A stretch of 64,000 nucleotides of DNA. Source: an uncultured virus (IMG/VR IMGVR_UViG_3300018080_007205). Taxonomy: Duplodnaviria; Heunggongvirae; Uroviricota; Caudoviricetes. The stretch is taken from the IMG/VR virus record IMGVR_UViG_3300018080_007205; one strand, given 5' to 3'. Shown here in pieces: positions 906 to 49,579 of the stretch. The translations under genes were made by a program, and so were the position numbers. Every line of letters starts with the position of its first letter. The stretch's first letter is position 1. The notes beneath the pieces are model-generated. The model ran no database searches. It was given only the letters and a program-made list of their open reading frames with translations, and was not told the DNA's origin.

Positions 906-1285
906 AGCCTGATGTCAATCCCGTCTATCTCTTCGTCTCTGCCCGGCAGGAGCTTCTTGAACTCGTCGCGAACCTCCTGAACATCGCTATCCAGCAGCTC
1001 GTACGAGACCAGCGGCATCGATGCCGAGTCATGCCTGCTGTTCTCGCTCACGAACAGCGCCCGCCCGAACATCTCGTACTCTCCGGCATAACAGTCGAGA
1101 CAATGTACGAACCTCCCGCCATCATGCGCCTGCCTATCTCCGTATCGCTCGGAAACCGACGCATTGTGGTTGTCGATCTCCTCCCACTCCTCGTCGGTGG
1201 TTGCGGCATCCTCGTCCAGGAGCAGACCACCGAGCGGCTTGATGTCAGCGCCGACCATGACTATGTTCCGCCAGTTCACTCCCAT
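881..1285 (-). CDS. hypothetical protein
   Basis: 134-aa acidic ORF with upstream AAAGGAAA RBS. Confidence 0.65.
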   Translation of the reverse strand: MGVNWRNIVMVGADIKPLGGLLLDEDAATTDEEWEEIDNHNASVSERYGDRQAHDGGRFVHCLDCYAGEYEMFGRALFVSENSRHDSASMPLVSYELLDSDVQEVRDEFKKLLPGRDEEIDGIDIRLWVFTHHS

Positions 1286-1300
1286 AACGTTTCCTTTCTG

Positions 1301-1441
1301 TGCCCCCGCCAGGAATCGAACCTGGATCTCAGAAGATGCTTGTAGGCTCCGCAGCGTTGGTCCAGCAGGACCGAGTAAGAGAGCTGATGTTGCTCTTTTC
1401 AGGCTTGAATGGCCTGTGACCTACCATTGGTCTACGGGGGC
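1301..1441 (-). ncRNA. tRNA-like RNA (anticodon loop CATTCAA, Glu-TTC-like) with ~75-nt module in variable arm
   Basis: Acceptor GCCCCCG/CGGGGGC, D stem GACC/GGTC, anticodon stem CAGGC/GCCTG, T arm CCAGG-TTCGATT-CCTGG; insert carries ACTCGG and GCCTACAAGCA. Confidence 0.85.
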
Positions 1442-1447
1442 AAATTT

Positions 1448-1572
1448 GGCACGCGAGCGAGAGGGCTGGATGACGCAAAGGGCGGGATTTGAACCCGCGA
1501 CCTTCTGTTTATCATACAGACGCTCAACCAACTGAGCTACTTTTGCTTGTAGGCCCTGTTCTTCTGCGTGCC
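1448..1572 (-). ncRNA. tRNA-Ile(GAT)-like core (1475-1546) enclosed by outer helix carrying the shared module
   Basis: Cloverleaf core GCAAAAG...CCTTTGC, loop ATGATAA; flanks pair (GGCACGC/GCGTGCC, AGGGC/GCCCT) and include CTACAAGCA. Confidence 0.85.
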
Positions 1573-1575
1573 TAG

Positions 1576-1710
1576 CAGGGGAGGAAGGATTCGAACCTTC
1601 ATGTTTGCTTGTAGGCTTCAAATAATGGGTCTCGACAGACCCGAGTGGTGAAGCTGGATGCGTTACGCTGGTTTTGGTGTCCAGTGCCTAATCCATTCGG
1701 CCACTCCCCT
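1576..1710 (-). ncRNA. tRNA-like RNA (loop CACCAAA, CCA-like) with module in variable arm
   Basis: Acceptor AGGGGAG/CTCCCCT, D arm GCC..GGC, T arm GAAGG-TTCGAAT-CCTTC; insert CAGCTTCA..ACTCGGGTCT/AGACCCA..TGAAGCCTACAAGCA. Confidence 0.85.
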
Positions 1711-1784
1711 GAAAACTTATTCTAACCTTCCGGAAGCAACTGGGCCTCCTGAAAACTCTCTGCGCGGATCATCCGCTCACATTG

Positions 1785-1921
1785 TGGGGGAGGCAGGATT
1801 CGAACCTGCAAATGCTTGTAAGCTTTGAGTGGTGGCTCCGATGGAGCCGAGTGGCAAAGCGGTTGAACAGTGATGTTCTGACTCCAAATGTCAGCGCCTT
1901 TTCCAGTTTGGCCACTCCCCC
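1785..1921 (-). ncRNA. tRNA-like RNA (loop ATTTGGA, Gln-TTG-like) with module in variable arm
   Basis: Acceptor GGGGGAG/CTCCCCC, anticodon stem CTGAC/GTCAG, T arm GCAGG-TTCGAAT-CCTGC; insert GCTTTG..ACTCGGCTCC/GGAGCCA..CAAAGCTTACAAGCA. Confidence 0.85.
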
Positions 1922-1946
1922 AGTATTATTTAGACGCCAATTATCG

Positions 1947-2082
1947 TCCCCCCGGAGGGATTCGAACCCCCATCTCACGGGTTGCGCCGGCGACCGGAAT
2001 CGAACCGGCGTGCGCCATCGTCGGACGTCTGCATCCTACTCGCCAACAAAAGCCCGGTGTTCTGCCGTTGAACTACGGAGGG
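1947..2082 (-). tRNA. tRNA (probably Lys-TTT) with ~64-nt tRNA-like insertion in anticodon loop
   Basis: Acceptor CCCTCCG/CGGGGGG, D stem GTTC/GAAC, T arm GGGGG-TTCGAAT-CCCTC; removing 1984-2047 gives loop CTTTTAA (junction ambiguous). Confidence 0.75.
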
Positions 2083-2133
2083 ATATGGGAACTTTGTACC
2101 CCTCCATGCGTTTCAATCTATCCATCCTCATAC

Positions 2134-2400
2134 TTATCTCCTCACTCTGATACAGGCAATAGTTCTACACTTACGCCCGCACTTTTTTTGGCAGGCGTCA
2201 CGGGATGCCTTGTCCGCAACCTTCTTTGTGCGAGCCCATGCCGTCGCATCGCATTCGCCCTCATTGAATGCCGGAACCGACATACACACCCACGGTCTAC
2301 GCTGCTTGACTGCGGCGGTGGTTCTCACCGGCGCGCTCAGCATGATCAGCGCAGCTACAACAACAGCCATCAGTACAACAGTCATTGCTTTCTTTCTCAT
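2134..2400 (-). CDS. small secreted Cys-rich protein
   Basis: Basic N-terminus plus hydrophobic signal peptide; six Cys. Confidence 0.6.
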   Translation of the reverse strand: MRKKAMTVVLMAVVVAALIMLSAPVRTTAAVKQRRPWVCMSVPAFNEGECDATAWARTKKVADKASRDACQKKCGRKCRTIACIRVRR

Positions 2401-2420
2401 TCTCTTGCCTTTCTTTCCAG

Positions 2421-2507
2421 TGGGGGCCGAAGGAATCGAACCTCATGCCTGTACAGGAAGTGGGTTACAGCCACCTGCGGGACCATCCCGCCTTATTGGC
2501 GACCCCC
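2421..2507 (-). tRNA. non-canonical tRNA-Tyr(GTA)
   Basis: Anticodon arm GGTGG-CTGTAAC-CCACT, long variable arm CCTG/CAGG, TTCGATT T loop, A73; 6-bp D stem. Confidence 0.75.
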
Positions 2508-2515
2508 CCGAAATT

Positions 2516-2632
2516 GCCAAACCCCCCCTCCGACTCAGGACGCGCACGCGAGAGTCGCCGGACGTCATTCTCTTCGCGCTAGGGAATGCTCTCCGCCGAA
2601 GCGGCATATCCGGCATCCCATCAGGGTTCGGC
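2516..2632 (-). ncRNA. structured intergenic RNA of unknown class
   Basis: Terminal stem GCCGAACCC/GGGTTTGGC enclosing GCCGGA/TCCGGC, CCGC-TTCG-GCGG, CATTC/GAATG and GACTC/GAGTC helices. Confidence 0.55.
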
Positions 2633-2634
2633 AG

Positions 2635-2705
2635 AGACCGCGACGGGATTTGAACCCGTGTTGCCGCTTTTGCAGAGCGGTGCCTATCCTCTTGGCTACG
2701 CAGTC
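2635..2705 (-). tRNA. tRNA-Cys(GCA)
   Basis: Canonical cloverleaf, loop CTGCAAA, U73 discriminator; no encoded CCA. Confidence 0.95.
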
Positions 2706-2888
2706 TGATCTTCGCCTCCCGCATCCGGAAGCGGACACCACTCCGGTGGTATCACAAATGTGGCAACGCCATCACAATCCAGCCTACATATCGTATTCGG
2801 CCACCACATTTTGCCATCAACCTCTTTCGACCCACCACATATCGGCGTATCCCGATGAATACAATCTAGTGGTCATTTCCAGCCTTTC

Positions 2889-3932
2889 TTAAAACAAACC
2901 ATGCGGATGGCTCTCTCGCACGCCCGCGGCAGTCTGGCGCATAAACGCAGCATGCTTTCGGAAAGTATCCAGGTCACGAGCGTTCAAGTATGTCATTGAT
3001 GATCTGAGCCCTTCCTCTAGCGCCTTGAAAATTGGCTCAACAGATCCCTTGTATCGCACCTTCTTCCGCTCACCCTCAATGGCTCTAGCATAACCCTTCC
3101 AGCTCTCTTGCGCTTCTCTGGAAGCCATGCCGCGGTAGATCTTGTATGTGTTCCACTGATCTCCGCTCTCAGAAAATACCTTACCAGGGGTCTGCTCGGT
3201 ACCGGCAAAAAGACTGCCTACCATCACAGCATCCGCACCAGCCGCTATAGCCTTTGCGATATCACCGGACTGCCTGATGCCGCCGTCCGCTATCACAGTT
3301 ATCGGTCTGTCTGCTTTTCTTGCAACCTTCGACACATCGATGACGGCTGTGAGCTGTGGTATTCCCACTCCTGTTTGAATTCGCGTAGTACATAAGCTGC
3401 CTGGTCCTACGCCCACTTTCAAGCAATCAGCGCCAGCTCGAATGAGCCTATGGGCACCATCCTCCGTGGCGATGTTTCCAGCTATCACAGGAAGGGTCTT
3501 CCACTCCGACTCTTTCAGCCATCTTATTTGCTCTACCATGGCGTCGCTGTCGCCATGAGCAATGTCGACCAACACCGCGTCGCACTTCTCGCCTATTTCA
3601 TGCATGCGGTCCCTGGCACGGGCACCAACACCAATGCAGCCAACCTTCAGGATGCTGCCCAAGTCGTGTAGCTGTTTGCGCTGCTCCTCAGGAGTCATAA
3701 AACGATGGATAATTCCCAACCCGCCCATCTTATGAATCGCCCGCGCCATCCTGTCCTCTGTCACAGTGTCCATATTCGCAGAGATTATGGGGACAGAGAT
3801 GTATTTGCCTATCGTCGGAAATATGTTGGTGCGCGTACTGACCTCTTCTACGAACCGCGAACTGATCGTATTGTGTACGGGCACCAGCTGTACATCGTCA
3901 TACGTGAGACCTGTTTCTTCCAGAATTCGCAT
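2889..3932 (-). CDS. guaB: IMP dehydrogenase / GMP reductase family (no CBS domains)
   Basis: [14 protein letters not shown], catalytic loop [23 protein letters not shown]; start moved to MRILEE because upstream part overlaps tRNA-Leu. Confidence 0.88.
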
Positions 3933-3956
3933 AAGTTGCCGACTTTCTTGTTCATG

Positions 3957-4036
3957 TGCTGCCGAGAGGATTCGAACCTCCAACCTCCTGGTCCTGGTCC
4001 TGAACCAAGCGCCTCTTCCTGTTGGGCTACGGCAGC
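3957..4036 (-). tRNA. tRNA-Leu(CAG)
   Basis: Cloverleaf, loop TTCAGGA, variable arm, A73. Confidence 0.9.
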
Positions 4037-4043
4037 ACAAACT

Positions 4044-4077
4044 AAAAACGCCCTGGGTCCGCTAGGAGCCAGGGCGT
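4044..4077 (-). terminator. intrinsic terminator-like hairpin
   Basis: ACGCCCTGG/CCAGGGCGT followed by T run on minus strand. Confidence 0.6.
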
Positions 4078-4310
4078 CGAGGGAGACAGTTTCTGCGCGT
4101 CTTGCTACCCGCCCGGGCTCCTTGGATCCTGCTTCAGGGAGACGCACTCGTCGGCTACGATGGCATACGGTCCCTCGGGCAGGAGTCCTGCTTCGATGCT
4201 CGAGAAAACGCAATTGTCCCAGCAGCGACCAGCGCCGTGAGACGATGTATGCTGTTTTTGCGTTCTCAACATCGATGACATTGGAATCTCCAGACGGTTG
4301 AAAATGCTAA

Positions 4311-4432
4311 ACACGTGAGTGAGAGGGCTGGGTTGACGCAAGGACGGGGATTGAACCCGCTACCTTCTGTGTGTAAAACAGACGCTCTACCTGGTGAGCT
4401 ACATTGCTTGTGAGCCCTTTTCGGTTACGTGT
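4311..4432 (-). ncRNA. tRNA-Val(TAC)-like core (4338-4407) enclosed by outer helix carrying the shared module
   Basis: Same architecture as 1448-1572: ACACGT/ACGTGT, AGGGC/GCCCT, TCACAAGCA, CTCACTC; loop TTTACAC. Confidence 0.85.
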
Positions 4433-4439
4433 CTTGCCG

Positions 4440-4560
4440 TGGGGATGGAAGGAATCGAACCTTCATAACATTGCGTGTAGGCTTCAAATCGTGGCTCCCA
4501 AGGGAGCCGAGTGAGGAAGCTGAGTATAGCATCGGCTTTTCCAGTTTTGCCTACATCCCC
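4440..4560 (-). ncRNA. tRNA mimic lacking an anticodon arm (replaced by shared module)
   Basis: Acceptor GGGGATG/CATCCCC, D arm GGC..GCC, T arm GAAGG-TTCGATT-CCTTC; only the module lies between D and T arms. Confidence 0.85.
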
Positions 4561-4571
4561 AAATTATTTCG

Positions 4572-4681
4572 TGGAGGCGGAGGGAATCGAACCCCCTATT
4601 GTGCTTGTATGCTTCAAGCGTTGACCCTCCAGGGTCGAGTGGCGAAGCGGTATCAAACGTGATGATCCATTCATCGCCCCC
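4572..4681 (-). ncRNA. tRNA mimic with tmRNA-like ends (G3-U70), no anticodon arm, carrying shared module
   Basis: GGGGGCG/CGCCTCC-A, T arm GGGGG-TTCGATT-CCCTC; GCTTC..ACTCGACCCT/AGGGTCA..GAAGCATACAAGCA. Confidence 0.8.
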
Positions 4682-4687
4682 ATCTCG

Positions 4688-4759
4688 TAGCGGAAACCAG
4701 ATTCGAACCGACGACCTTCGGATTATGAGTCCGACGCGCTGCCTCTGCGCCATTCCGCA
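4688..4759 (-). tRNA. tRNA-Met(CAT), initiator-like
   Basis: Cloverleaf, loop CTCATAA, unpaired 1:72, GCGGAA/TTCCGC acceptor. Confidence 0.88.
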
Positions 4760-4896
4760 TCATCTGCCTTCCGTACCCATTACTATAGCTCACGGACAGG
4801 AAGGTCGACACTTTATGCTAAGAAAATTACAACTACGCATAATAAATACAGAAAACAATCCTGCAACGACGAACATAAAGGATTGCAAAAAACTTT

Positions 4897-4917
4897 GGAT
4901 GCATCAACGCGCGCGCG
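4897..4917. repeat. 21-bp intergenic motif GGATGCATCAACGCGCGCGCG, copy 1
   Basis: Identical to 37202-37222. Confidence 0.8.
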
Positions 4918-4919
4918 CG

Positions 4920-5201
4920 TTACTCATCGCACACCGGGCATACGCGCGACACTGATGTGAACAGCTGGACTTCCCTGGTCTCCGCGCCGCATTCAGGACA
5001 CGGATTCCCTGCCTGCTTTGCGTATATCAGAGAGACCCCCTTGGGCAAGGGTTCCACCTTTAGAATATGTCTGGCTATTCCTTGGTAATCTAGGAAAAAA
5101 TGTGCTGAGAAGGCGCGCTGTATCATGTACTTCTCGATCTCAGCAGCCATCCTTTCGTAAGCATTGATGCCTCTACTCATCCTCTTCGTCTTCTTCCACA
5201 T
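4920..5201 (-). CDS. hypothetical protein with C-terminal zinc ribbon
   Basis: CPECG...LFTSVSRVCPVC; similar tail in 12135..12377. Confidence 0.65.
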   Translation of the reverse strand: MWKKTKRMSRGINAYERMAAEIEKYMIQRAFSAHFFLDYQGIARHILKVEPLPKGVSLIYAKQAGNPCPECGAETREVQLFTSVSRVCPVCDE

Positions 5202-5757
5202 TCATCGATGGCAGGCACTCGATCGCCCGCGAAGTGTCGTACTCCGCAACCACGGTGACTCCGCATACCTCGGCAGCTGCGGTGCCGTCATCCATCTCCA
5301 TCCACTGGCTCTGCTCGGTCAGATCAGGATTGTTGTTCCTGAGCCTGGCCGCCAGCGCCAAAGCCTCCTCAAATGTTTCAGCCTCGACCTCGGCGCACAT
5401 CTCATACACCTCTTCCCAGCTGACGCTCCACTTCTTGCGGCAGTCCGGAACCGTGACCGTCTGGTTGACTAAGCGCGGATCGCCAGTGCTTACTATCTCG
5501 AACTTGACATCCAGCGGAGACCCGTCCTCAACACTGGCATAGTCGACCTTCACCTCTCCCTCGGGGTCGGACTTGGCAACCTTGATCGCTTCAGCCACTG
5601 CATCGTCCGCAGGTTTGAAAACCTTCATGTTCTTTTCCTCCTCAGAGCACATGCGGCATTTGCCGAGCTTGCGCCCGTGTCGGCACATGCCGTTGGTTAA
5701 GAGCCACAAAAAGAAGCGCGCTTCTTCGTCAGGATGCGACATCCGAACTTTCCTCAA
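5173..5757 (-). CDS. hypothetical acidic protein (start may be 5628)
   Basis: ORF fills gap; GAGGAGG RBS precedes MKVFKP. Confidence 0.6.
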   Translation of the reverse strand: MRKVRMSHPDEEARFFLWLLTNGMCRHGRKLGKCRMCSEEEKNMKVFKPADDAVAEAIKVAKSDPEGEVKVDYASVEDGSPLDVKFEIVSTGDPRLVNQTVTVPDCRKKWSVSWEEVYEMCAEVEAETFEEALALAARLRNNNPDLTEQSQWMEMDDGTAAAEVCGVTVVAEYDTSRAIECLPSMNVEEDEEDE

Positions 5758-7209: not shown

Positions 7210-8517
7210 TCAGCCGGAATCGGAATCGTACACAAGCTCTGCGCGCCGGAACTTCCTTTTCCCGACCTGTAGCAGGTACGACCTGCCGCCGCGCAGCTCG
7301 GAAAACTTGTCCAGGATCCTGTGGCCGTCCACCTTGACTCCCCTTCCCTCTATCATGCGCCTGGCGTCGGACACGCTGGAGCACATGCCGAGATGCTTCA
7401 GAAGATGGGCAACGGGAAACTGCGGCACTTCCGACCATGACACCGTGACCGGCTCAAGGTCCGGAGCGACCCTTTCCTGCCCCTTGGGAGGATGCAGCAT
7501 GTCGAACTGGTTCCGGGCTTCCTCGGCAGCCTCCTCGCCATGGATGCTACTGACGATGTCGAACGCCAAAGCGACCTTCTCGGCCTTGCGCCCGCGCTGC
7601 GCGGCAGCCTGCCTCTCGCAGTCGTCGCCCGCCCACAGCAGCTCGTACCACTGGTCCATCGTCTCGTCCGAGATGCTCATGATCTTCCCGAACATCCCGT
7701 CCCTGCTGCCGATGTTGTACGGCGGGTCGCTGAGCGGTATATGGTTGTCCAGAGACTTGGACATCTTGCGCTTGCCGTCCAGGCCCAGAAGAAGATCGAC
7801 GGTGAGGATAATCTGCGGCTTCTTTCCGCAGGTCTCCATTAGGTCCCTGCCGACTGACAGGTTGAACAGCTGGTCCCTGCCGCCGAGCTCGATGTCCGGC
7901 TCAAGCACGACGGAATCATGCGCCTGCATGATCGGGTACATCAGCTCGTGCAGGCCGAGCGAAGCCCCGTCGTCCATGCGCTTGCGGAAATCGCGCCTGG
8001 CCAGCATCTGCTGTGTCGTGAATTTCTCAAGTATTCCCATGAACTCCGGCAAATCCATCTCCTCGAACCACCAGCTGTTGTACGAGAAGGCCGTGAGCCT
8101 GTCGTCAAGGAACTCCGTGATCTTGTCCAGGAATGGCTTCGCGTTGGCCTCCGCCTCGCCATGCGACAGCTTCGGCCTCTCGGCGCTGCGCCCCGTCGGG
8201 TCGCCGATCCTGGCCGTGAAGTCCCCGATAACCAGGCGCACGAAAAAGCCGGCCTCCTGGAACTGCCTCAGCTTGTTTATCAGGACGAAATGCCCTAGGT
8301 GCGGATCCCTGATTGTCGGATCAAATCCGCATTTGACCTGTAGCATGGTCTTCTCGCTGGCGCGCCTGCGCAGCTCCGGAAGCGCGGATTCCCACAGCTC
8401 CCTCGTCATGCCACGCGCCAGTTCGCTTTCGCCGGGGATGGGCGTGCTCTCCGGAGGAGGGTCCACATCAAACCCACCGGACTTCAGAACTTCCTTCTCG
8501 TCATCGCTCATCATCAC
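7210..8517 (-). CDS. tyrS: tyrosyl-tRNA synthetase
   Basis: GFDPT, HLGH, IGDFTARIGDPTG, YPIMQAHD, GGRDQLFN, KMSKS, C-terminal S4-like domain. Confidence 0.96.
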   Translation of the reverse strand: MMMSDDEKEVLKSGGFDVDPPPESTPIPGESELARGMTRELWESALPELRRRASEKTMLQVKCGFDPTIRDPHLGHFVLINKLRQFQEAGFFVRLVIGDFTARIGDPTGRSAERPKLSHGEAEANAKPFLDKITEFLDDRLTAFSYNSWWFEEMDLPEFMGILEKFTTQQMLARRDFRKRMDDGASLGLHELMYPIMQAHDSVVLEPDIELGGRDQLFNLSVGRDLMETCGKKPQIILTVDLLLGLDGKRKMSKSLDNHIPLSDPPYNIGSRDGMFGKIMSISDETMDQWYELLWAGDDCERQAAAQRGRKAEKVALAFDIVSSIHGEEAAEEARNQFDMLHPPKGQERVAPDLEPVTVSWSEVPQFPVAHLLKHLGMCSSVSDARRMIEGRGVKVDGHRILDKFSELRGGRSYLLQVGKRKFRRAELVYDSDSG

Positions 8518-9599
8518 TACATTTTCCTAATGGCACCCATAAACAGGGGAATGCTGTTGTTGTCGACGATCGCAAACGCGAACGACCTGTCCGCGCGCAG
8601 TATCATGTCCGGACTTTCACAGCATCTCCTGAGACACATTGCGGTGGCTGCCGCGGCCTCTGAGCCCTTCTCGTCAACCTCTATCTTGGCCTTGTGGACG
8701 ATTCCACCCACGAAAAGGTCGTTGCTCTCGGCGATGCCGGAAAAATCCGCCTCCCCGGAAACAAAGGCATTGGGCATCCCCATCTCCCGCAGATGGCTTG
8801 CCAGCATGTATTCCGTCGACTCGCTGAACTTCGGAATGTACATCCGCACATCGCGCTCAACGAAGCGGGTCCGGAGGGATGCCGCAAGGGCATCGGCAAG
8901 GGATGTTCCCTTTTCCGGCAGCGCAATCACCATGCGGCAGCTCCCGTCGCCGTACGGAAGAGCAGCTGCCTTGACGATGCTGTTTGAGAAAAACGGAATG
9001 TCGTCGCCTTTTCTGTACATCATGTCCACAACGACTTCCGTGCCGTCGTCATTGAAGAACGGCGACTGGCTGGTATGCCTGGCATTGAACGGCACCGCCC
9101 AGTCAGCCTTAAAATACACGGCATTTGCCAGCACCATAGCTGTCGCCCTGATCATGTCGGGGGACAAGAGGTCGCTGATCAGACCGCGCGTCTTTTCGGA
9201 AACCCACTTGTTGACCTGGTCGCACACAGCCTCCGCGTCCTTGAAGTCGACGCGGCGGACCATCTCACACGCCTCTCCGACGAACGACAGATATGAGTCC
9301 TTGACCGCCAGCTTTTCGTCGATCAGCGCGGCATTGGCGGAATCGATCCGGACGCTTCCGGTGGACATGTCCCTCTGCCGCAAAAGCTCCAGAGCTGCCA
9401 TGTCGCCGAACCCCAGCACATCCTTCATCTGCTCGAACGTGTCTCCGTTGGCTCCCGCCATCGCAAGCGACAGGGCGCTCGCTATGCTGAAGGGTGAAAT
9501 GAAAGCGTTCTCGTCTTTCGGCAGCCTGCCAAGCAGCTCCAGACCGAAATGTGTGAGTCCACCGCGCAGCGCGCTGGTGTTTTCATTCAGTATCTTCAT
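8517..9599 (-). CDS. serpin (serine protease inhibitor)
   Basis: NAFISPFSI, INKWV-like motif, NAVYFKADW, IEVDEKGSEAAAAT hinge, ADRSFAFAI, LFMG. Confidence 0.94.
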   Translation of the reverse strand: MKILNENTSALRGGLTHFGLELLGRLPKDENAFISPFSIASALSLAMAGANGDTFEQMKDVLGFGDMAALELLRQRDMSTGSVRIDSANAALIDEKLAVKDSYLSFVGEACEMVRRVDFKDAEAVCDQVNKWVSEKTRGLISDLLSPDMIRATAMVLANAVYFKADWAVPFNARHTSQSPFFNDDGTEVVVDMMYRKGDDIPFFSNSIVKAAALPYGDGSCRMVIALPEKGTSLADALAASLRTRFVERDVRMYIPKFSESTEYMLASHLREMGMPNAFVSGEADFSGIAESNDLFVGGIVHKAKIEVDEKGSEAAAATAMCLRRCCESPDMILRADRSFAFAIVDNNSIPLFMGAIRKM

Positions 9600-9609
9600 T
9601 TTACAATCC

Positions 9610-9999
9610 TCAATCTTTCGGCGGCGCGCCGCCATGCCCGTTCTCGCAGCATGGTCCGGACGGCGTGCGATACTGCGCCTCTCCGCACACGGAGCACAAC
9701 TCCCCGTTCAGCGGCCAGTCGATCACTTTTTTGCTATGAAACTTCGGAGGGAGATCATCATCTCCGACATGCCTGCGAACCAATCCCACATTGGCGTGCC
9801 AATCCTGAACCGGATGGTTCTCCGCTAAAAAATCGGCCCATTGCCTAAGTTCGTCCTCGCCTTTTTTAAGCTCCTTTATGCTGCGCGCAAGCTCCTCCTT
9901 TTGCTCTGCCACCTTGTCGCGCAAAGGGGCAAGGAACTTGTTCGTCTTATACAGCATCTTCTGCGCATTGCGCACTATCGGGGAAATTTCAGCCATCAC
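9610..9999 (-). CDS. hypothetical protein (coiled coil + Cys motif)
   Basis: Coupled ORF; CSVCG...CENGHGG. Confidence 0.6.
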   Translation of the reverse strand: MMAEISPIVRNAQKMLYKTNKFLAPLRDKVAEQKEELARSIKELKKGEDELRQWADFLAENHPVQDWHANVGLVRRHVGDDDLPPKFHSKKVIDWPLNGELCSVCGEAQYRTPSGPCCENGHGGAPPKD

Positions 10000-13819: not shown

Positions 13820-15586
13820 TTAGCCGTATCCGTCTTCGCTTTTCTTTTCTTTCGGTCTGGCTGCCCTGATGAGCCTGACCAGCTTGCCGTGCTTCCCCCT
13901 AATTGCGCATCCGGCGGCGAACGGATGCCCCCCGCCGCCCATTGCCTTTGCGATCTCCGACACGTCCAGCCTCTGGTTGGACGTGCGCAGCCTGACCTCT
14001 CCACCTGGTGATATGAGACACACGGATTCGCTCATGCGGGACATGATGGACATGATGTCGGTGATTGCCCACGACGGAACAGGTTCGCTGATCCGCACTA
14101 TCATGAACCCGTTGCGGCACCTGGACGTCCTTGCAGACTGCATGGCCGACAGGACGATGCCGCTGTTGATCTGGTCGACGACCCACACCGTCTCCTGGGC
14201 TATGCTGTCCTCGACGTCCAGCGTGGTCAGAAGCTGCGCCATTTCGGACATTCTCCTTCTAAACAGCGTATCGCCGTAGATGCCGGCTATCAGTATGTCG
14301 TCCCTGATGCCGAAGCACCTGACGAGGATCCCGGCGGTGCTGCACATGTCGATTACGAACACGCCGTTCTCCGGGTCGTGCTTTTTTATCCTGGTGGCGT
14401 GGTGGTCGATATTTAAGATTGGAAGGTCTCCGACTTCCCACCCGATGCGTTCTTTTTCCCATCCGGAATCCAGCACGATTATCTGTTCGGCGTCCTCCGG
14501 CATTTTTTTGAACGACGCTTCTGGCGGCACCATGTCCGCCAAGTTGGAAGGCATGTCGCCCTCCAGCCTGATAGACGACGGCACTCCGTGCTCCGCGAGG
14601 TGCCTGTGAACTGCCACGCACGACGACACCGCATCGGCGTCTGGGTGCGCATGCGCCGTTATAACCGATTTTCTTAGGGGAATGGCATACAGTTTCGTGC
14701 GTTTTTCGATGATGTCTGCAATCTGGTCCGGTGCGGTGACGACCTCCCACAATAATCCGCATTCTATATAGTGCCTAATTTTTGGATGGTCTTCGTCGTA
14801 GGGCGGCTTGCGCGACTGACCAAGTCCATCGACTTCGACCCATACCTCGGTGTTATTGTTAAGGTACACGATAAAGTCGCAACTCCACCAACGCTTGTAT
14901 GTGATTCGCACATCCCCGGCGTATCCGCGGATTTTTCTTGACAACTTCATGGCGAAAAGCTCATCCGCAACGAGCATATTCAGGTTCGACGCGTATTGTT
15001 TGCCATCTTGACCAGTATACTCCGGTCTGCCCTTGTCCTTGCGTATTGACTCGTAGTCCAGGCCGCAAGCCTCAAGCGTCTTTTTCCACGACCCCAGGAA
15101 CTTCTCAGCAGCCCTGAGAAGCTTTGGATGGCGGTAGTAGGCATGCTTGTAGTTCAGCGGCTCAGATGCGTCCTGAAGCTCTCTGACAGCCTCCAGTACC
15201 CTGTTCCTGTCCCACTCAGGCTCTTCGGACGCAACGCCAGCCTGCTCCAAGGCGGAATTCCACGACCCGAACTCCCGCTTGGCGGCACTGTACAGCCCCG
15301 AGGCGCTTTTTCCTATTGTTTCCGGAGAGATATCTTTGCCAGCAAGCGACAGTCTTCCTATCTCCGCAATAATGCGACCTTTTGTCCAATTGTGCGTCGC
15401 CTTGAGTTCGTAGTCGACCCCGCATGACTCAAGAGCCTTGCGCCACGATCCGAACACAGAGCGTGCAGAACCGTACAGGGAAGGATATTCCTCCCTGATT
15501 GCCCCGCCGCCGAGATAGACCCCGTCCGCATCCAGCGCCTTGATGGAAGCGCGGATCTTCTCTTTCGACCATACGCTGCTGTTCAT
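13820..15586 (-). CDS. fusion: helical DNA-binding repeats + PD-(D/E)xK-like nuclease + DHH/DHHA1 phosphoesterase
   Basis: Three FGSW..AL...G repeats; CDFIV...WVEVDG; HAHPDADA, IDHH, GDT, GGGGH. Confidence 0.8.
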   Translation of the reverse strand: MNSSVWSKEKIRASIKALDADGVYLGGGAIREEYPSLYGSARSVFGSWRKALESCGVDYELKATHNWTKGRIIAEIGRLSLAGKDISPETIGKSASGLYSAAKREFGSWNSALEQAGVASEEPEWDRNRVLEAVRELQDASEPLNYKHAYYRHPKLLRAAEKFLGSWKKTLEACGLDYESIRKDKGRPEYTGQDGKQYASNLNMLVADELFAMKLSRKIRGYAGDVRITYKRWWSCDFIVYLNNNTEVWVEVDGLGQSRKPPYDEDHPKIRHYIECGLLWEVVTAPDQIADIIEKRTKLYAIPLRKSVITAHAHPDADAVSSCVAVHRHLAEHGVPSSIRLEGDMPSNLADMVPPEASFKKMPEDAEQIIVLDSGWEKERIGWEVGDLPILNIDHHATRIKKHDPENGVFVIDMCSTAGILVRCFGIRDDILIAGIYGDTLFRRRMSEMAQLLTTLDVEDSIAQETVWVVDQINSGIVLSAMQSARTSRCRNGFMIVRISEPVPSWAITDIMSIMSRMSESVCLISPGGEVRLRTSNQRLDVSEIAKAMGGGGHPFAAGCAIRGKHGKLVRLIRAARPKEKKSEDGYG

Positions 15587-15606
15587 AATTTCCTTTTGGA
15601 AGGATG

Positions 15607-15903
15607 CTACATGTTTTCTGACAAAAAGCGGTCTATTTCTTCCTGAGAACGCAGACCTGTCAGGCGCGCGCACATACACCCCTTGTCCCTGACCAGGACA
15701 AGAGTTGGAATGGACCTTATACCGTATTTCACGGCAACTGACGGGTCCTCGTCTATATTGACGCTTTCCAGCTTGACCCCGCCGTGCTTTTCCATAACCG
15801 ACTCCAGAACGGGAGCTATTGCCTTACAGGGGGCGCACCACGGTGCCCAGAATTTCAACAGGAGGGGCTTGTCCTTTTTTTCAACACCGGCATCAGTTGC
15901 CAT
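15607..15903 (-). CDS. trxA: thioredoxin
   Basis: FWAPWCAPCK, IRSIPTL; GGAGG RBS before 15903. Confidence 0.93.
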   Translation of the reverse strand: MATDAGVEKKDKPLLLKFWAPWCAPCKAIAPVLESVMEKHGGVKLESVNIDEDPSVAVKYGIRSIPTLVLVRDKGCMCARLTGLRSQEEIDRFLSENM

Positions 15904-22198: not shown

Positions 22199-24631
22199 TC
22201 ATTTTCCGGGTCCCATCTCGTACAGGAACTTCCGCACATTCTCAATTTTCCTGCTCTTCGGCACACCGCTCGGGAGGCTCGCAAGGAAAATCCCGCCATA
22301 CGGCTTGACGGCTATCCTCTGGTCCAGCACCACCACGACTCCCCTGTCGCTCATGCTGCGTATCAGCCGCCCGAATCCCTGCTTGAAAGCGATTACGGCC
22401 CGGGGAACGCTGTACGACATGAACCAGCTGTCGCTCCTGGCTGAGATGGCATCCAGGACTGGGTCGTCCGGCGTGGGAAACGGCAGTCTGTCGATCACGA
22501 CGCACGACAGGGAGTCTCCCGGCACGTCCACTCCGGCCCAGAACGACTCCGTTCCCAGCAGCACGGAATCCTTGTCGCTTCTGAACATTTCCACAAGCGA
22601 GGTTCTGGGAGCCTCGCCCTGCCTCATGACGCTCTGTTTGAGCCCTGCAGCCAAGGCGGTCTCGTGCGCCAGCGCAAGGTTCTTGTACGATGTGAACAGT
22701 CCCAGCACGCGCCCGCGAGCCAGCTTGATGGTTTCGACAACGGCATCGGCGACTGCCTGCGGGTACTTGGTCCTGTCAGTGGGCATGGGCATTCCGTCCG
22801 GCACGATCAGCAGCGCCTGCTCTTGGAACCTGAATGGGCTGTCCACTACCAGCTCGTCGGCGACCGCGCATCCCAGCTCGTTTTTCAAATGCCCGAACCT
22901 CCCGTTGACCGCAAGCGTCGCAGATGTCGTAACAACGCTTTTGGAAGACTTGAAGAGCGCCTCGTCCAGCATCGCGCTGACGGAAATGGGTTTCCCCTTC
23001 AGCACAACCGCCTTGTTGCTCTGGATTTCCTCCAGGAAATACACTTCGTTGCTTTCAGCCAGCGTCATTGCGGCGCGGACGTTTCCGGCGATCCGGGCGG
23101 CTGCAGCCGCCGCCTTGGCGTACGATGCCTTCTCATCCCGCTCTACAGCGTTGATCATGGCGCTTCTGAACACCAGCCTGACCTTGTCAAGGGATTCGCA
23201 CAGCGGCTTCCACGCCACGCCCTTCGGCGGCTTCTTGAGCCGTGTTTTGTACTGGCGCGACCTGTACAGCTTCCCGAGGTCGTAGAACATCTGCGACGAC
23301 TGCTCCTTGAGATCCCGGTACAGCCTGGACGGGTCCTCCTCCCCCTCGGCGTGCCGCAGCTTGCTGAGCGGGCTGGCCGCGAATGTGATGCTGCGTTCAG
23401 ACACCCTGAATCCGAAAAAGTCCCTGGCTATGTCCGCCGCCTTGTGCCCTTCGTCGCAGACCACAAAGTCGTAGTCCGGCAGCACGGAAGCCGTACCATC
23501 AGAGGACATGCGGACCTTCAGGTCCGCGAACAGGAGATGGTAATTCGTCACGAACACATTGGCGGACGATGTGCCAGCCTTTGCTCTTTCCGCATAGCAC
23601 TCATCGCGCGACTTGCAGTCGCTGCCCTTGCACTCGTCGCTCGTAACGGAGAACATCCGCCAGATGTCGCCGTACGGCTCGAAGTCCAGCTCGGACTTGT
23701 CCCCGGCGCGCGTGGCGCGCCCCCATTTGATTATGTCGCGGTACTGCTTGAGCCTGACCCTGCTGCTGCGCCCCTTGAGGCTGCTGTCACTCTGCTCCGA
23801 CTGCCAGCGGTCGACGCACAGGTAGTTGTTCCTCCCCTTGATGAGGGCGAACGTGAAATCGATCGGCAGCGCTTTCTTGAGGAACGGCAGGTCCTTGCAG
23901 AACAGCTGCTCTTGCAGGGCGATGTTGGCGGTTACTATTGCAACTTTGACATTTTGCTGTACTGAGCAGTAGGCGGCAGGTATACCATAGGCTATGGACT
24001 TGCCTGTATTGTGCGTCACTGTGAAATCATCTAGTAGATATCTACCATCGCCATCCAACGAAAACCCGAAATAGTCTTCAATCTTTCCGGTCCTCGAAAC
24101 AGAGAATCCTGTTCTTAGAACATTTTTTTTCTCAACTCTGAAAAGTTGATAAATATGTTTTCGGCTTGTCGACCATTCTTCCCATTCTCTAATCGGCACA
24201 TCCAAAACCTCTCCGTCTCTATAATCCTTGCTGCCGGTTTCTATGGGTGGTTTCGTGTTAGTGCGAACAAGCGTTAGGATGTGGCTCCTATTCACGCGCC
24301 ATGCGTTTCCCTTGGTGGGGATGATGTCAACCATTTCTTCACGACCACGGCAGAGCGATAGTACGGTTCTGGCATGGTCATCTGGTCCCATGAGTTTGTC
24401 GCCGACTATAATGTCCTCTACCGTTTTAAGAGACCCGTCGTACATAAGAATTTTCTGACCGGCAGCATGACATCCGGTCGGTCCCTCAACCATCAGATGG
24501 CGACTCTCCCGGAACGACCTGTCAACCGCCCTTGCCATCTCCACCTGTCCGGGGCGCGGCTGATAGTCGTCGAAATGCTTGGAGAGTATGCCGCCCGGAC
24601 CGAACACTTCCGCTATGTATCTTGGCTCCAT
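22199..24631 (-). CDS. DinG/YoaA-family helicase containing an intein
   Basis: RPGQ Q-motif, EGPTG|TGKS Walker A, KGRNNYLC, FeS Cys, DEGH, TSATL, FWAGVDVPG, QGFGRLIRS. Confidence 0.95.
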   Translation of the reverse strand: MEPRYIAEVFGPGGILSKHFDDYQPRPGQVEMARAVDRSFRESRHLMVEGPTGCHAAGQKILMYDGSLKTVEDIIVGDKLMGPDDHARTVLSLCRGREEMVDIIPTKGNAWRVNRSHILTLVRTNTKPPIETGSKDYRDGEVLDVPIREWEEWSTSRKHIYQLFRVEKKNVLRTGFSVSRTGKIEDYFGFSLDGDGRYLLDDFTVTHNTGKSIAYGIPAAYCSVQQNVKVAIVTANIALQEQLFCKDLPFLKKALPIDFTFALIKGRNNYLCVDRWQSEQSDSSLKGRSSRVRLKQYRDIIKWGRATRAGDKSELDFEPYGDIWRMFSVTSDECKGSDCKSRDECYAERAKAGTSSANVFVTNYHLLFADLKVRMSSDGTASVLPDYDFVVCDEGHKAADIARDFFGFRVSERSITFAASPLSKLRHAEGEEDPSRLYRDLKEQSSQMFYDLGKLYRSRQYKTRLKKPPKGVAWKPLCESLDKVRLVFRSAMINAVERDEKASYAKAAAAAARIAGNVRAAMTLAESNEVYFLEEIQSNKAVVLKGKPISVSAMLDEALFKSSKSVVTTSATLAVNGRFGHLKNELGCAVADELVVDSPFRFQEQALLIVPDGMPMPTDRTKYPQAVADAVVETIKLARGRVLGLFTSYKNLALAHETALAAGLKQSVMRQGEAPRTSLVEMFRSDKDSVLLGTESFWAGVDVPGDSLSCVVIDRLPFPTPDDPVLDAISARSDSWFMSYSVPRAVIAFKQGFGRLIRSMSDRGVVVVLDQRIAVKPYGGIFLASLPSGVPKSRKIENVRKFLYEMGPGK
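24008..24472 (-). mobile_element. mini-intein (155 aa) in helicase Walker A
   Basis: Starts CHAAGQ, block-B-like NRSHILT, ends VTHN before +1 Thr; no endonuclease domain. Confidence 0.93.
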
Positions 24632-24993
24632 CAGCCTTGCTCTTCCATATCGTGCGACGACCTCATTTTTGACGACTGGATAGTATCGATGATTGTTTTC
24701 CTGAGATCGGATCCGGCCGGCGTCGTGTCCTTGATAAGGTGGCTGAAGCACGGCATACACAAAGTAAGCGTGTCATGGATGCTGGTGTCGGAATCCGCCC
24801 CCTTCCCGTTGAAGAAGTGGATGTCCAGCACGCACCGCCACACGTGGTCGGTACAGATATCGCAAGTACACGCATCGCACGGTCGCGACTCAGCGCGCTT
24901 GCCGCATGCCGGAATGTCGCATTTGCGGTACGTGACAGTTTCCGTGATCTCCATCTCAATCACCCTGCTGTTCGTTGCTGTTTTCCGAGACAC
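24631..24993 (-). CDS. hypothetical Cys/His-rich protein
   Basis: CDIPAC, CDAC, CTDH, CMPC. Confidence 0.6.
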   Translation of the reverse strand: MSRKTATNSRVIEMEITETVTYRKCDIPACGKRAESRPCDACTCDICTDHVWRCVLDIHFFNGKGADSDTSIHDTLTLCMPCFSHLIKDTTPAGSDLRKTIIDTIQSSKMRSSHDMEEQG

Positions 24994-29806: not shown

Positions 29807-30967
29807 GTTCCCTTAAACTTGGACATTTTGTCCAGAGTCTTTGGGTTTGTACAGGGCACCGTAAGGTCCCTGAAGAAATCGCGAAAGTATGTTAGAGGCA
29901 GCATTTACATCTGCGTTTTCGCTGTAGTCACATTTCAAACATCTAAATACTTCGCCTTTGCGATTTCCCCTCTCGGTATGACCACAATTAGAACAGCGTT
30001 GAGAAGTATGAGCAGAGGGCACAGATCGAAAAGTAATACGATTACTTTCCGTTGCCTGTTGTAATCTGCTCAACCAATAACGATAATTCCAACTACCAAG
30101 AGAACGACGCATATTTTTATTCAAGCGCCGTTTGAGTTTTGTTTTATAATTTAAGTTCTTAAGTTTCTCTACAACAATCAGTTGCGGGCCTTCATTTACA
30201 ATTTCTTTAACTGTTTCATTTATGTATTGTTTTAAAGCATTTCTTCTTCGTTTTTGACTCTTCGAACCATATTTACATCTTTTAATCTTTTCAATATGTT
30301 GTTCAACTTCTTTTCCAAATTGTTTTCCATCAGAAGTAGAAGCAAGTGCTTTGATGCCCGTGTCTATTCCAATTAACTTACCAGAGGTTTTCTTTGGTTG
30401 AGTTTTTATCTCGAACACAAATTGAACATAACCTGGTGTAATTATATAAGCGTTTAGTCGTTTCCCTTTACTATTCCACTTATTGAACTGCCTGTGATAT
30501 TTAATTGGAATGTCTATAATTGTTTTATTTCCAATTGAAGAAAGATGTAACCATGCGTCAAATGAAGTATTCTTGTTTGACTGTAGATCAGCAATGGTTG
30601 AAGAACAACACATTCTTTTACCTTTGTGAATGGGCATCTTAATTTTGCTTGGTTTGTTCTTCCATCTTTGTTTTACAGATTGAATCATATCTATTGCTTC
30701 ACGAGCAGCAACTTTTCTTAACCTCGCAGATAACCAAGTTTCGGGCAGGTTAACCACATCTTTTAGCAATTGTGCTTTACCTATATTTTTGTCCCAAAAA
30801 TATTGAATAAAGAAATTACATACTTTGCCGTATTCAACAAGAATAGTTTCCAGTTTTTGTTTCTTATATTGTGTAGCAAATTTAATACTACATTTAACGG
30901 ATCGTGTGAATTTCATTTATTCCTCTTTTGTCTAAAAATGTCCAAGTTTATTGGCTACTGTTTAATA
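29805..30967 (-). mobile_element. TnpB-only insertion sequence (IS607/IS1341-like) inserted in dut
   Basis: AT-rich 1163-bp insert with GGT at both junctions; 16-bp inverted repeats at 29814-29829 and 30935-30950. Confidence 0.9.
29813..30916 (-). CDS. tnpB: TnpB RNA-guided endonuclease
   Basis: RuvC GIDTG, VVEKL, NADVNAA; TSQRCSNCG...FRCLKC zinc finger. Confidence 0.93.
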   Translation of the reverse strand: MKFTRSVKCSIKFATQYKKQKLETILVEYGKVCNFFIQYFWDKNIGKAQLLKDVVNLPETWLSARLRKVAAREAIDMIQSVKQRWKNKPSKIKMPIHKGKRMCCSSTIADLQSNKNTSFDAWLHLSSIGNKTIIDIPIKYHRQFNKWNSKGKRLNAYIITPGYVQFVFEIKTQPKKTSGKLIGIDTGIKALASTSDGKQFGKEVEQHIEKIKRCKYGSKSQKRRRNALKQYINETVKEIVNEGPQLIVVEKLKNLNYKTKLKRRLNKNMRRSLGSWNYRYWLSRLQQATESNRITFRSVPSAHTSQRCSNCGHTERGNRKGEVFRCLKCDYSENADVNAASNILSRFLQGPYGALYKPKDSGQNVQV

Positions 30968-31287
30968 CCCTTTGGCAAAGATACCGTCCTGTTTTCTAGG
31001 TTCACCAGGCAGACCTGAATCTCTCCCCTATATCCGCAGTCAACCGTCCTAGGAGAGTTCAGCACGGTCACCCCATGTTTTACCGCCAGCCCTGATCTGG
31101 GTCTTATCTGCCCTTCTGTTCCTAGGGGCAGCTCGACCGCTATCCCGCATGGTATCAGTTCGTATGCCCCAGGAATGATGGTCGCATCCTGGCATGAGAA
31201 AAGATCGACTCCTGCGTCTCCTGGCATTGCCCTGCGCGGCAGCTTTGCATCGACATGTAATCGCTTTATTTTTATCATCTTATTCAC
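30967..31287 (-). pseudogene. dut: dUTPase N-terminal fragment
   Basis: AGVDL, RPRSGLA, VDCGYRGEI; truncated at IS junction. Confidence 0.92.
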
Positions 31288-31681: not shown

Positions 31682-31732
31682 ATGCTTTCGCAGATAGGGC
31701 GTGGCTATCCTTTTTATGGCAGCGAAACACTC

Positions 31733-49578: not shown

Positions 49579-49579
49579 T

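Follow-up and report, generated by a model that had tools for sequence, protein, structure and literature searches.

Oversized tRNA-shaped loci in a viral tRNA cluster

A 64,000-nucleotide stretch of DNA from an uncultured virus of the Caudoviricetes (IMG/VR record IMGVR_UViG_3300018080_007205; hereafter, the window) looks like a portion of a huge phage genome and contains a tRNA cluster that spans positions 1300 to 4760. In this cluster the original prediction, made from the sequence alone, had placed three tRNAs with giant variable arms, which we refer to as copy A (1301-1441), copy B (1576-1710), and copy C (1785-1921). All three are on the minus strand. A search with the Rfam tRNA model RF00005, whose gathering score is 29 bits, gave 51.0 bits for copy A (E = 3.3e-9), 39.6 bits for copy B (E = 4.5e-6), and 49.9 bits for copy C (E = 6.7e-9). 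Each copy matched positions 1-71 of the model and carried 60-70 extra nucleotides between the anticodon arm and the T arm. The folding energies of copies A, B, and C were each better than those of shuffled sequences, with z values of −3.43, −2.87, and −3.24, respectively. Since the RF00005 scores, the loop sequences, and the folding z values agree, the original observation of three loci with tRNA arms is confirmed. Its accompanying remark that class II variable arms are much shorter than these inserts is right as general knowledge; known class II variable regions comprise roughly 10-25 nucleotides. ARAGORN called none of the three copies, and an Rfam search of positions 1200-5200 with E values of up to 1 found no family that matched their inserts and only tRNA as a match to the copies.

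Copy A is 141 nucleotides long and has a fully paired acceptor stem (GCCCCCG/CGGGGGC, 7/7), a standard D arm, a hairpin at the anticodon position with the loop CAUUCAA, the module described below, a small hairpin (AUCU-UCUG-AGAU), and the T arm. Copy B (135 nucleotides) also has a 7/7 acceptor stem. Its 3-bp D stem carries a long loop, an arrangement that it shares with copy C and that is typical of class II tRNAs, and its anticodon-position hairpin, CUGG(A)-CACCAAA-(A)CCAG, has a stem closed by an A.A mismatch and is followed by the module. In copy C (137 nucleotides), the anticodon arm CUGAC-AUUUGGA-GUCAG displays the triplet UUG and is followed on its 3' side by an extra hairpin (GAACA-UCAC-UGUUC) and then by the module. 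The anticodon loops are odd in the way that had been predicted: those of A and B have A at position 33 (A33), and that of C has U33. Among the three, only copy C combines U33 with a purine at position 37 in a 7-nucleotide loop.

The module, which had been predicted to lie between the anticodon and T arms of all three copies, was indeed common to them, and its two helices, P1 and P2, were fully paired in each. In copy A (1337-1384, minus strand) it consists of P1 (GCUCU/GGAGC, 5/5), the unpaired stretch J1 (CUUACUC), P2 (GGUCC/GGACC, 5/5), the second unpaired stretch J2 (AACGCUGC), and then CUACAAGCA. The module of copy B (1606-1654, minus strand) has P1 GCUUCA/UGAAGC (6/6), J1 CCACUC, P2 GGGUCU/AGACCC (6/6), and J2 AUUAUU, again followed by CUACAAGCA, and that of copy C (1813-1860, minus strand) has P1 GCUUUG/CAAAGC (6/6), J1 CCACUC, P2 GGCUCC/GGAGCC (6/6), and J2 ACCACU, followed by UUACAAGCA. 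The module is thus approximately 48 nucleotides long. On the RNA strand it runs from a C-rich linker (AUCCA, CAACC, or a similar sequence) through the first strand of P1, YCACUC, the P2 hairpin, a second loop that usually begins with AC, and the returning strand of P1 to YUACAAGCA, which sits 3-11 nucleotides 5' of the T stem. In copies A-C, P1 comprises 5-6 bp, and P2 starts with GG and ends with CC; the sequences of both helices vary between copies while pairing is kept. The motif YTACAAGC was found nine times in the window compared with 2.43 expected occurrences, a count reached by none of 100 shuffled sequences, and four of the nine lie within 1338-1821.

Several known elements were considered for the module and rejected. 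Inspection argued against a kink-turn or an RNase III site, in that tandem G.A pairs are lacking, the helices fall short of the required length, and the loops are large. A pairing of UACAAG with a complementary 6-mer in helix 28 of 16S rRNA is too short to mean anything. A known ribozyme or riboswitch was not recognized, since no Rfam family matched the insert at E values of up to 1 and the manA model gave 20 bits against a gathering score of 55.2. A group I intron in copies A-C is likewise excluded by the lack of a match to RF00028 in 1200-5200 at E values of up to 1 and by the size of the insert (~60-70 nucleotides, against ~200 or more for the intron core). The notion that YUACAAGC is the anticodon loop of a tRNA-Val also failed: the flanks of the module form no consistent stem, though many matches to the pattern are genuine tRNA-Val(UAC). 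Separately, CCUACAA, an anticodon loop in which position 33 is C instead of U, was seen in numerous tRNA-Val(UAC) genes of phages and in some of bacteria; examples include the IMG/VR loci L044, L045, L089, L103, and L117, among others, and the genome loci L198, L218, and L223.

Capped, split, and permuted forms of the module

A covariance model (R1) covering the module and the T arm was built from nine sequences on alignments of their 3' parts. Copies A, B, and C scored 57.6, 81.7, and 81.2 bits with this model, respectively. A total of 27 copies with P2 capped by a hairpin, from 14 sources (phage records and contigs of metagenome-assembled genomes), aligned to R1 at 42-82 bits. In this alignment, 91.0% of cells were paired compared with 64.0% in shuffles, and 14 of the 16 pairs had changed on both sides. 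The covariation score was 0.707 compared with 0.188 in shuffles; none of 500 shuffles reached the observed value, and a control in which the partner strand was slid gave at most 0.16. The helices of the module are maintained by compensatory change. Its unpaired bases CUCG and UACAAG are invariant, whereas the tRNA body varies. All 27 capped copies have a 7/7 acceptor stem, and their length of 110-145 nucleotides lies outside the range of 70-95 nucleotides for a tRNA. The linker from the anticodon stem to P1 is 6-17 nucleotides long; over the capped alignment and the permuted units described below, P1 comprises 5-9 bp and the internal loops 4-9 nucleotides.

The search with R1 showed that the original list of copies in the window, every one of which exists, was incomplete: the window holds five capped copies (A, B, C, E, and F) and, in addition, two split copies around normal tRNAs. 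Copy F (4440-4560, minus strand; 121 nucleotides; R1, 74.9 bits) has a 7/7 acceptor stem, a D arm, the module (4472-4520, with the motif variant CUACACGCA), and a T arm; its 5' part is just 34 nucleotides long. Copy E (4572-4681, minus strand; 110 nucleotides; R1, 54.1 bits) has a perfect acceptor stem, one short hairpin, the module (4602-4648), and a T arm. Neither copy contains an anticodon hairpin.

In the split copies, the two strands of the module are distributed over the leader and the trailer of an ordinary tRNA. The unit around tRNA-Ile (1474-1546) occupies 1448-1572 on the minus strand, with P2 paired 7/7 and P1 5/5. Its leader consists of a P2 strand (1572-1566), a loop, and a P1 strand with CUACAA (1557-1547), and its trailer of UCAUCCA with the other P1 strand (1473-1462) and CUCGCUC with the other P2 strand (1461-1448). 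The unit around tRNA-Val (4337-4407) occupies 4311-4432 on the minus strand, with P2 ACACGU/ACGUGU (6/6) and P1 AGGGC/GCCCU (5/5). UCACAA lies 5' of the tRNA, and the trailer contains UCAACCCA, a P1 strand, CUCACUC, and a P2 strand. The leader ends CUACAA and UCACAA run directly into base 1 of the respective tRNAs. Between the Ile and Val units, P2 shows two compensatory double changes; therefore, the pairing of the split module also appears to be under selection. A split leader/trailer module was found around a tRNA in one further locus (L192).

To find relatives in further phages, IMG/VR was scanned with a pattern, which matched 22 loci. Six true copies, all with a 7/7 acceptor stem, lie in five of these (L001, L005, L010, L017, and L020); at the remaining 17, the match was either the anticodon loop of an ordinary tRNA-Val or due to chance. 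L091 was added by a second scan. When five whole phage records were searched with R1, all five gave matches, and the complete genomes of 436, 437, and 388 kb had 7, 5, and 4 matches (E up to 0.01), respectively, several of them in tandem. By blastn, the region 1250-2150 of the window matched records of cultured phages only in the ordinary tRNA-Ile. A scan for uninterrupted orthologs, based on a D-arm sequence common to copy C and a unit of the 437-kb phage (G004), returned 17 loci, mostly in coding sequences or other tRNA-like genes, none of which was a counterpart. Two other arrangements were noted. The 436-kb phage has a group I intron (RF00028, 69.2 bits; L005, 1-205, cut at the edge of the locus) that adjoins the array of module RNAs in its tRNA cluster. 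At L025, 2291-2379 (G002:C1:100365-100453), a complete tRNA-Phe(GAA) is apparently nested in an outer shell, in which the 5' strand of an acceptor precedes the tRNA and UAACAAGCA, a T arm, and the 3' strand of the acceptor follow it.

Three weaker R1 matches of G004, all in locus L032, proved to be circularly permuted genes, each located directly 3' of a normal tRNA. The first half of such a unit consists of the return strand of P2, CCCGCC, the return strand of P1, MUACAAGCA, the T arm, and the acceptor 3' strand. A spacer of 22-24 nucleotides with a small hairpin separates it from the second half, which comprises the acceptor 5' strand, the D arm, the anticodon arm, the linker, a P1 strand, ACACUC or CUCACUC, GG, and a P2 strand, after which the next normal tRNA begins. 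The anticodon loops of the three units are CUGAAGA, AAGUAAC, and CUCUUAA, and the units repeat anticodons of normal tRNAs (Phe GAA and Lys CUU) that lie inside the same 3 kb. The P2 strands are wholly different in sequence and yet complementary (AUGUCAGUC/GACUGACAU, AUGUCGUC/GACGACAU, and ACGCUCGAUU/AAUCGAGCGU), and P2 can therefore do without its hairpin cap. Closure of the fold is possible at either P2 or the acceptor.

Bacteria were scanned using one genome for each of 185,579 species, and 54 loci were returned. Strong R1 scores were obtained for contigs of two metagenome-assembled genomes of Myxococcota and one of an unclassified proteobacterium, all of them with capped copies, and moderate scores for the chromosomes of Archangium gephyra, Archangium sp., and Vitiosangium, whose copies are permuted units. 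A signature of the permuted form (UACAMGC, a T loop, 70-100 nucleotides, and CACUCGG) was present in 95 of the 401 sampled Myxococcota genomes, compared with 2 hits for a reversed-pattern control. The signature of the capped form was found in only 1 of the same 401 genomes, compared with 2 control hits, and this single case consists of two adjacent permuted units. An R1 search over 151 genomes of one order, in which 30 of the hundreds of candidates per genome were scored, gave a match in one Archangium genome (G007) only. Huge phages and roughly one in four of the sampled Myxococcota genomes thus contain the family, which links phages with a bacterial phylum; as phages have the capped and cells the permuted version of one fold, the comparison also provides a natural handle on the essential parts of that fold.

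The permuted units were highly regular. Among 36 distinct units, P2 had at least 6 contiguous pairs counted from GG in 35, the other P2 strand ended exactly 14 nucleotides before UACAMGC in 34, and the acceptor stem had at least 6 of 7 pairs in 35; the single outlier looks like a chance match in a coding sequence. P2 comprises 6-12 bp in permuted units compared with 5-7 bp in capped copies. A tandem pair of units is conserved in Archangiaceae and related genomes (L205, L214, L224, L230, and other loci with the permuted signature). Its first unit has an anticodon arm, and in its second unit the module stands on top of the equivalent of the anticodon stem, with no loop. In Archangium and Vitiosangium, this stem of the loop-less unit covaries (UGAGA/UCUCA, CGAGC/UCUCG, and CGAGA/UCUCG). 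Single units are also conserved across these two genera, outside any tRNA cluster. With regard to their surroundings, a terminator-like hairpin and an M1 aminopeptidase gene lie 3' of the tandem pair, and one single unit is located approximately 25 nucleotides upstream of the start codon of a calcineurin-like metallophosphoesterase gene in both genera (L234, L235, and L236; L278, 5447-6151, minus strand), of which it could be a leader element. Apart from these units, one Archangium locus (L245; G007:C1:2913550-2914980) contains 14 tRNA genes in 1.4 kb; arrays this dense are uncommon in bacterial chromosomes, and this one might derive from a phage.

Copies A-C genuinely belong to a family of tRNA-shaped RNAs that share a conserved module of two helices and that appear to be undescribed. 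Besides tRNA, Rfam yielded no above-threshold match for the family, and full-text searches of the literature returned no account of it. The supplementary tables of a survey of viral structured RNAs could hold the motif; the text of that survey, which covers 10,006 candidates, mentions tRNA-like motifs only generically. The family also marks an annotation gap, in that ARAGORN missed every copy submitted to it, namely those of L205, L232, and L234 and all five of the window.

Known tRNA-like RNAs and the possible role of the module

The loops at the anticodon position were classified by reading the sequences of the 27 capped phage copies. A 7-nucleotide loop with U33 was present in 12 copies, a 7-nucleotide loop with A or C at position 33 in 7, and a loop of 6, 8, or 9 nucleotides in 6; the remaining 2 copies, both in the window, have no anticodon hairpin. 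Just 7 of the 27 combine U33 with a purine at position 37. The canonical loops include that of copy C, with UUG, and others with GUU, GUA, and ACG. In contrast, among 20 host loops, counted after dropping one false hairpin and one phage unit, U33 was kept in 18 and a purine at 37 in 15, and C32 and A38 were common. The phage copies are clearly more relaxed in the loop than the host units. The triplet is not fixed among host orthologs: 10 different heptaloops occurred among the 17 genomes listed for one ortholog group, and the loops of three close relatives were CUCCGGA, UCCUGAC, and UUCGGGA. Archangium genome G007 has 81 matches to the tRNA model, and ARAGORN finds in it a full conventional set, including two Arg-CCG and three Lys-CUU genes, that contains the anticodons shown by its permuted units. 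As judged from this gene content, the hosts do not appear to need the permuted units for decoding.

A close likeness to a known RNA concerns YrlA, the Y RNA-like RNA of bacteria and some phages, whose modules are a core resembling a tRNA (T arm, D arm, and acceptor helix) and a long stem with internal loops. The order of T arm, closed acceptor, and D arm in most YrlA RNAs, which is that of a circularly permuted tRNA, is also that of the Myxococcota and G004 units, and the permuted core with a closed acceptor and a stem formed from the 5' and 3' ends was found in these units and not in copies A-C. The YrlA model (RF02553) aligned end to end to a permuted Archangium unit at 34.9 bits, against a gathering score of 69; it did not match copies A-C, and its only match in the window was at 4384-4465, with 20.2 bits. 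In one study, most YrlA RNAs are said to "resemble circularly permuted tRNAs", one of them is cut by RNase P and given CCA, and no bacterial splicing endonuclease is known (10.1101/312249). The family differs from YrlA in several respects: the capped phage copies have open acceptor ends and a capped stem, the conserved YCACUC and YUACAAGCA of the module are not in the YrlA consensus, and many units keep a separate anticodon arm, which places the module in the variable region. Furthermore, Ro60/TROVE (PF05731), whose gene usually neighbors that of YrlA, was found in none of five genomes or records searched (G007, G008, G002, G004, and G005), whereas Deinococcus and Bacteroides controls were positive. 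Because of the sub-threshold YrlA score and the lack of Ro60/TROVE, the family, which may work like a modular tRNA mimic of the Y RNA type, is not a member of YrlA.

Other known RNAs share single features with the family. Like class II tRNAs (Leu, Ser, bacterial Tyr, and Sec), the copies have an extra helix between the anticodon and T arms, but the module arm of ~48 nucleotides comprises two helices with conserved loops and single-stranded linkers, in an insert of 60-70 extra nucleotides. The species 1 and species 2 RNAs of phage T4 (rnaC and rnaD) are stable, are ~140 nucleotides long, are located in a phage tRNA cluster, and are released by tRNA-processing enzymes; no module shared with them is known. 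Two-piece transfer-messenger RNA (tmRNA) of alpha-proteobacteria and cyanobacteria is the product of a permuted gene and a tRNA-like RNA held together by helices. Copy E was matched by the tmRNA model (RF00023) through its acceptor and T arm only, at 30.2 bits against a gathering score of 47 and with 328 model positions skipped; the copies have no reading frame for a tag and no pseudoknots, and ARAGORN found no tmRNA in the window.

In Archaea, one RNA motif, the bulge-helix-bulge (BHB), marks introns, permuted junctions, and sites of precursor excision, and the module occurs in the same trio of contexts (capped or intron-like, permuted, and leader/trailer). As in BHB-dependent permuted genes, the 3' half precedes the 5' half with a short spacer in between, as seen in the three L032 units and in the 36 permuted units, 35 of which have at least 6 of 7 acceptor pairs; this likeness does not apply to copies A-C. 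By inspection, however, the module is not a bulge(3)-helix(4)-bulge(3). Moreover, it occurs in bacteria and phages, it sits in the variable region or at the top of the anticodon stem and not at 37/38, and many of its copies cannot yield a canonical anticodon loop. An EndA-type endonuclease (PF01974) was found in none of the five phage records, whereas four archaeal controls were positive; this search did not extend to the host genomes. BHB-dependent tRNA genes that are permuted, split, or interrupted by introns are known from Cyanidioschyzon merolae, green algae, and Archaea (see the review PMC3978253).

Of the two readings in the original prediction, a new intron position or stable non-decoding mimics, each found partial support: the lax loops and the hairpin-less copies favor mimics, and the three contexts of the module and the presence of RNA ligases keep the intron alive. 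We tentatively prefer, with somewhat less than even confidence, the view that the phage copies are stable, oversized, non-decoding tRNA mimics in which the module is a functional surface, and that they are not interrupted tRNA genes. Each RNA has a perfect 7-bp acceptor stem and a canonical T arm, the copies are located among ordinary tRNA genes, and hairpin-less forms are conserved, such as copy F with its 74.9 bits on R1 and the second unit of the Archangium/Vitiosangium tandem pair. The tRNA-like half would recruit RNase P, RNase Z, and the CCA-adding enzyme of the host, by which the RNA would be freed from the transcript of the tRNA cluster and stabilized. The module would be retained on the mature RNA as its working surface and would most likely serve to bind a factor that phage and host have in common, much as the end-stem of Y RNA/YrlA binds Ro60, and the anticodon-position hairpin of the phage copies would not serve in decoding. 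Given that the module is permuted, with a closed acceptor, in Myxococcota and is present as several capped copies in huge phages, the RNA imitated by the phage copies is probably one of the host, and they may exploit or titrate the partner of that RNA. A decoy role in a conflict centered on tRNA is also plausible because the window encodes a polynucleotide kinase, a phosphoesterase, and an Rnl1-type ligase. If the copies are mimics, these RNAs point to an RNA-protein system copied by phages.

Several points weigh against the idea of mimics. The stability of the RNAs, their ends, and the retention of the module are all inferred from sequence. The split module must be removed to yield tRNA-Ile and tRNA-Val, and it acts there as a processing element. 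The genes neighboring the Archangium units (a histidine kinase, the metallophosphoesterase, and M1 peptidases) are uninformative on function, and the Ro60/TROVE search described above was negative. Several of the acceptor-closing loops of host units consist of ACCA plus 3 nucleotides and look as if RNase P could open them with the release of a CCA end. Finally, the features kept by the host loops would be expected of a decoder, or of something read like one; because these loops keep the shape of a real anticodon loop, the host RNAs may be read by something that recognizes it.

The main rival explanation, although rather unlikely in our estimation, is that the module is a processing motif of disrupted tRNA genes, which would be BHB-like in role and different in structure. 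An endonuclease would cut the two conserved single strands that adjoin P1, one near AUCC and the other after UACAA, with subsequent joining of the exons by RtcB or Rnl1. On this view, the capped copies would be genes with an intron, permuted units would mature via a circle opened by RNase P and RNase Z, and the Ile and Val units would merely be released. One module does occur in three topologies (capped, permuted in G004 and in the 95 of 401 Myxococcota genomes, and as a leader/trailer pair), and the permuted units are regular in P2, in the 14-nucleotide spacing, and in the acceptor stem, but the geometry (P1 of 5-9 bp and loops of 4-9 nucleotides) is not the 3-4-3 arrangement. A cut after UACAA would leave GCA plus 2-5 nucleotides, a near-normal variable loop in most copies, and the same site is the 5' end of the tRNA in the Ile and Val units. 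On the other hand, spliced variable regions would be irregular because the linker between the anticodon stem and P1 varies from 6 to 17 nucleotides; hairpin-less units would not yield a 7-nucleotide anticodon loop by any simple excision; and the part supposedly discarded is the most conserved one. The host loops resemble real anticodon loops and some phage loops are canonical, whereas 15 of the 27 phage copies lack a canonical loop and the permuted units of G004 duplicate the anticodons of nearby normal tRNAs. Ligases are encoded, namely the Rnl1-like protein in the window, together with the kinase and phosphoesterase, and RtcB in two of the five related phage records (G002 and G004), yet G005 has no RtcB and EndA was absent from all five. 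An Rnl1 hidden Markov model matched nothing in the related records, but its positive controls were also unmatched. Such a processing motif would be the first bacterial counterpart of the tRNA gene disruption of archaea and eukaryotes and would bear on what bacterial RtcB ligates. The broader proposal that Myxococcota and huge phages own a disrupted-tRNA-gene system, with intron-containing, permuted, and leader/trailer-embedded genes, a non-BHB motif (P1 flanked by AUCC and YUACAA, with YCACUC-GG-P2), an endonuclease, and RtcB or Rnl1, is put forward here as unlikely; if it holds, it would reveal the first pathway for tRNA splicing and permuted tRNAs in Bacteria, along with a natural substrate for bacterial RtcB.

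A third explanation, which requires no new enzyme and which we consider quite improbable, is that the module does no more than clamp or stabilize transcripts of the tRNA cluster in cis. During processing by RNase P and RNase Z it would keep leader and trailer, or permuted halves, together, it would have no later function, and the tRNA-shaped RNAs would be by-products or spare long-armed tRNAs. The compensatory P2 changes in the leader/trailer form at tRNA-Ile and tRNA-Val fit this explanation, as does the greater length of P2 where two strands must be held. However, a pure clamp does not need invariant unpaired CUCG and UACAAG or a fixed 14-nucleotide spacing, the module is lacking from three of the five normal tRNAs of the window (Cys, Leu, and Met), and single units are conserved in Archangium and Vitiosangium away from tRNA clusters. 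Least probable by far is a decay of copies A-C as tRNA pseudogenes each hit by a small mobile insert, either similar to a miniature inverted-repeat transposable element or related to IS200/IS605, even though a similar insert is present in several tRNA-like genes and the window contains a TnpB/OrfB gene (29813-30916). Copies within one genome differ in helix sequence and still pair, unlike the products of recent transposition; the acceptor stem is 7/7 in all 27 copies; the module is also split and permuted with covarying strands; and neither terminal repeats nor target duplications were present in the sequences inspected.

Neighboring genes and further elements of the window

The long reading frames of the window are all on the minus strand. 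They include genes for a tyrosyl-tRNA synthetase-like protein, IF3, peptide deformylase, a chaperonin, ribosomal protein S21, Lon and Clp proteases, a serpin (8517-9635), and a PARP-like protein (35418-36896), as well as the RNA-repair genes for the Rnl1-type RNA ligase, the polynucleotide kinase, and the phosphoesterase. In a tblastn search, the ligase gave distant matches of T4-like phages and actinophages. ARAGORN found five ordinary tRNAs, namely Ile, Cys, Leu, Val, and Met. The small open reading frames near the cluster (148-657, 654-905, 881-1285, 2134-2400, 4920-5201, and 5173-5757) had no PHROG match, and their single Pfam match was a weak one to a P-loop kinase, at 148-657.

Two more tRNA-like elements are present in the cluster. 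A fourth oversized tRNA (1947-2082, minus strand; 48.5 bits on RF00005) has a 67-nucleotide insert within the anticodon loop and no YUACAAGC motif. As this insert consists of a T-arm-like hairpin (GCCGG-UUCGAUU-CCGGU) closed by a 7-bp acceptor-like helix, the locus resembles a mini-tRNA nested in a tRNA. The element at 2412-2512 (minus strand) has an acceptor and a T arm, gave weak scores with both the tRNA-Sec model (23.5 bits) and R1 (20.5 bits), and includes UGUACAGGCA, which recalls the motif of the family.

The TnpB/IS605 OrfB-like gene (29813-30916, minus strand) lies in a dip in the guanine-plus-cytosine content at 30001-32000, the sole such stretch of the window (0.44 compared with ~0.55 elsewhere), and its region is likely a recent insertion. 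A helicase gene at 22199-24760 (minus strand) contains a Hint (intein) domain, and a gene at 13820-15679 (minus strand) encodes a DHH-family protein with a homing-endonuclease-associated repeat. At 47951-50266 (minus strand), adjoining genes for a ThiF-like E1, a JAB protein, and a prokaryotic E2 form a ubiquitin-like conjugation set in a phage.

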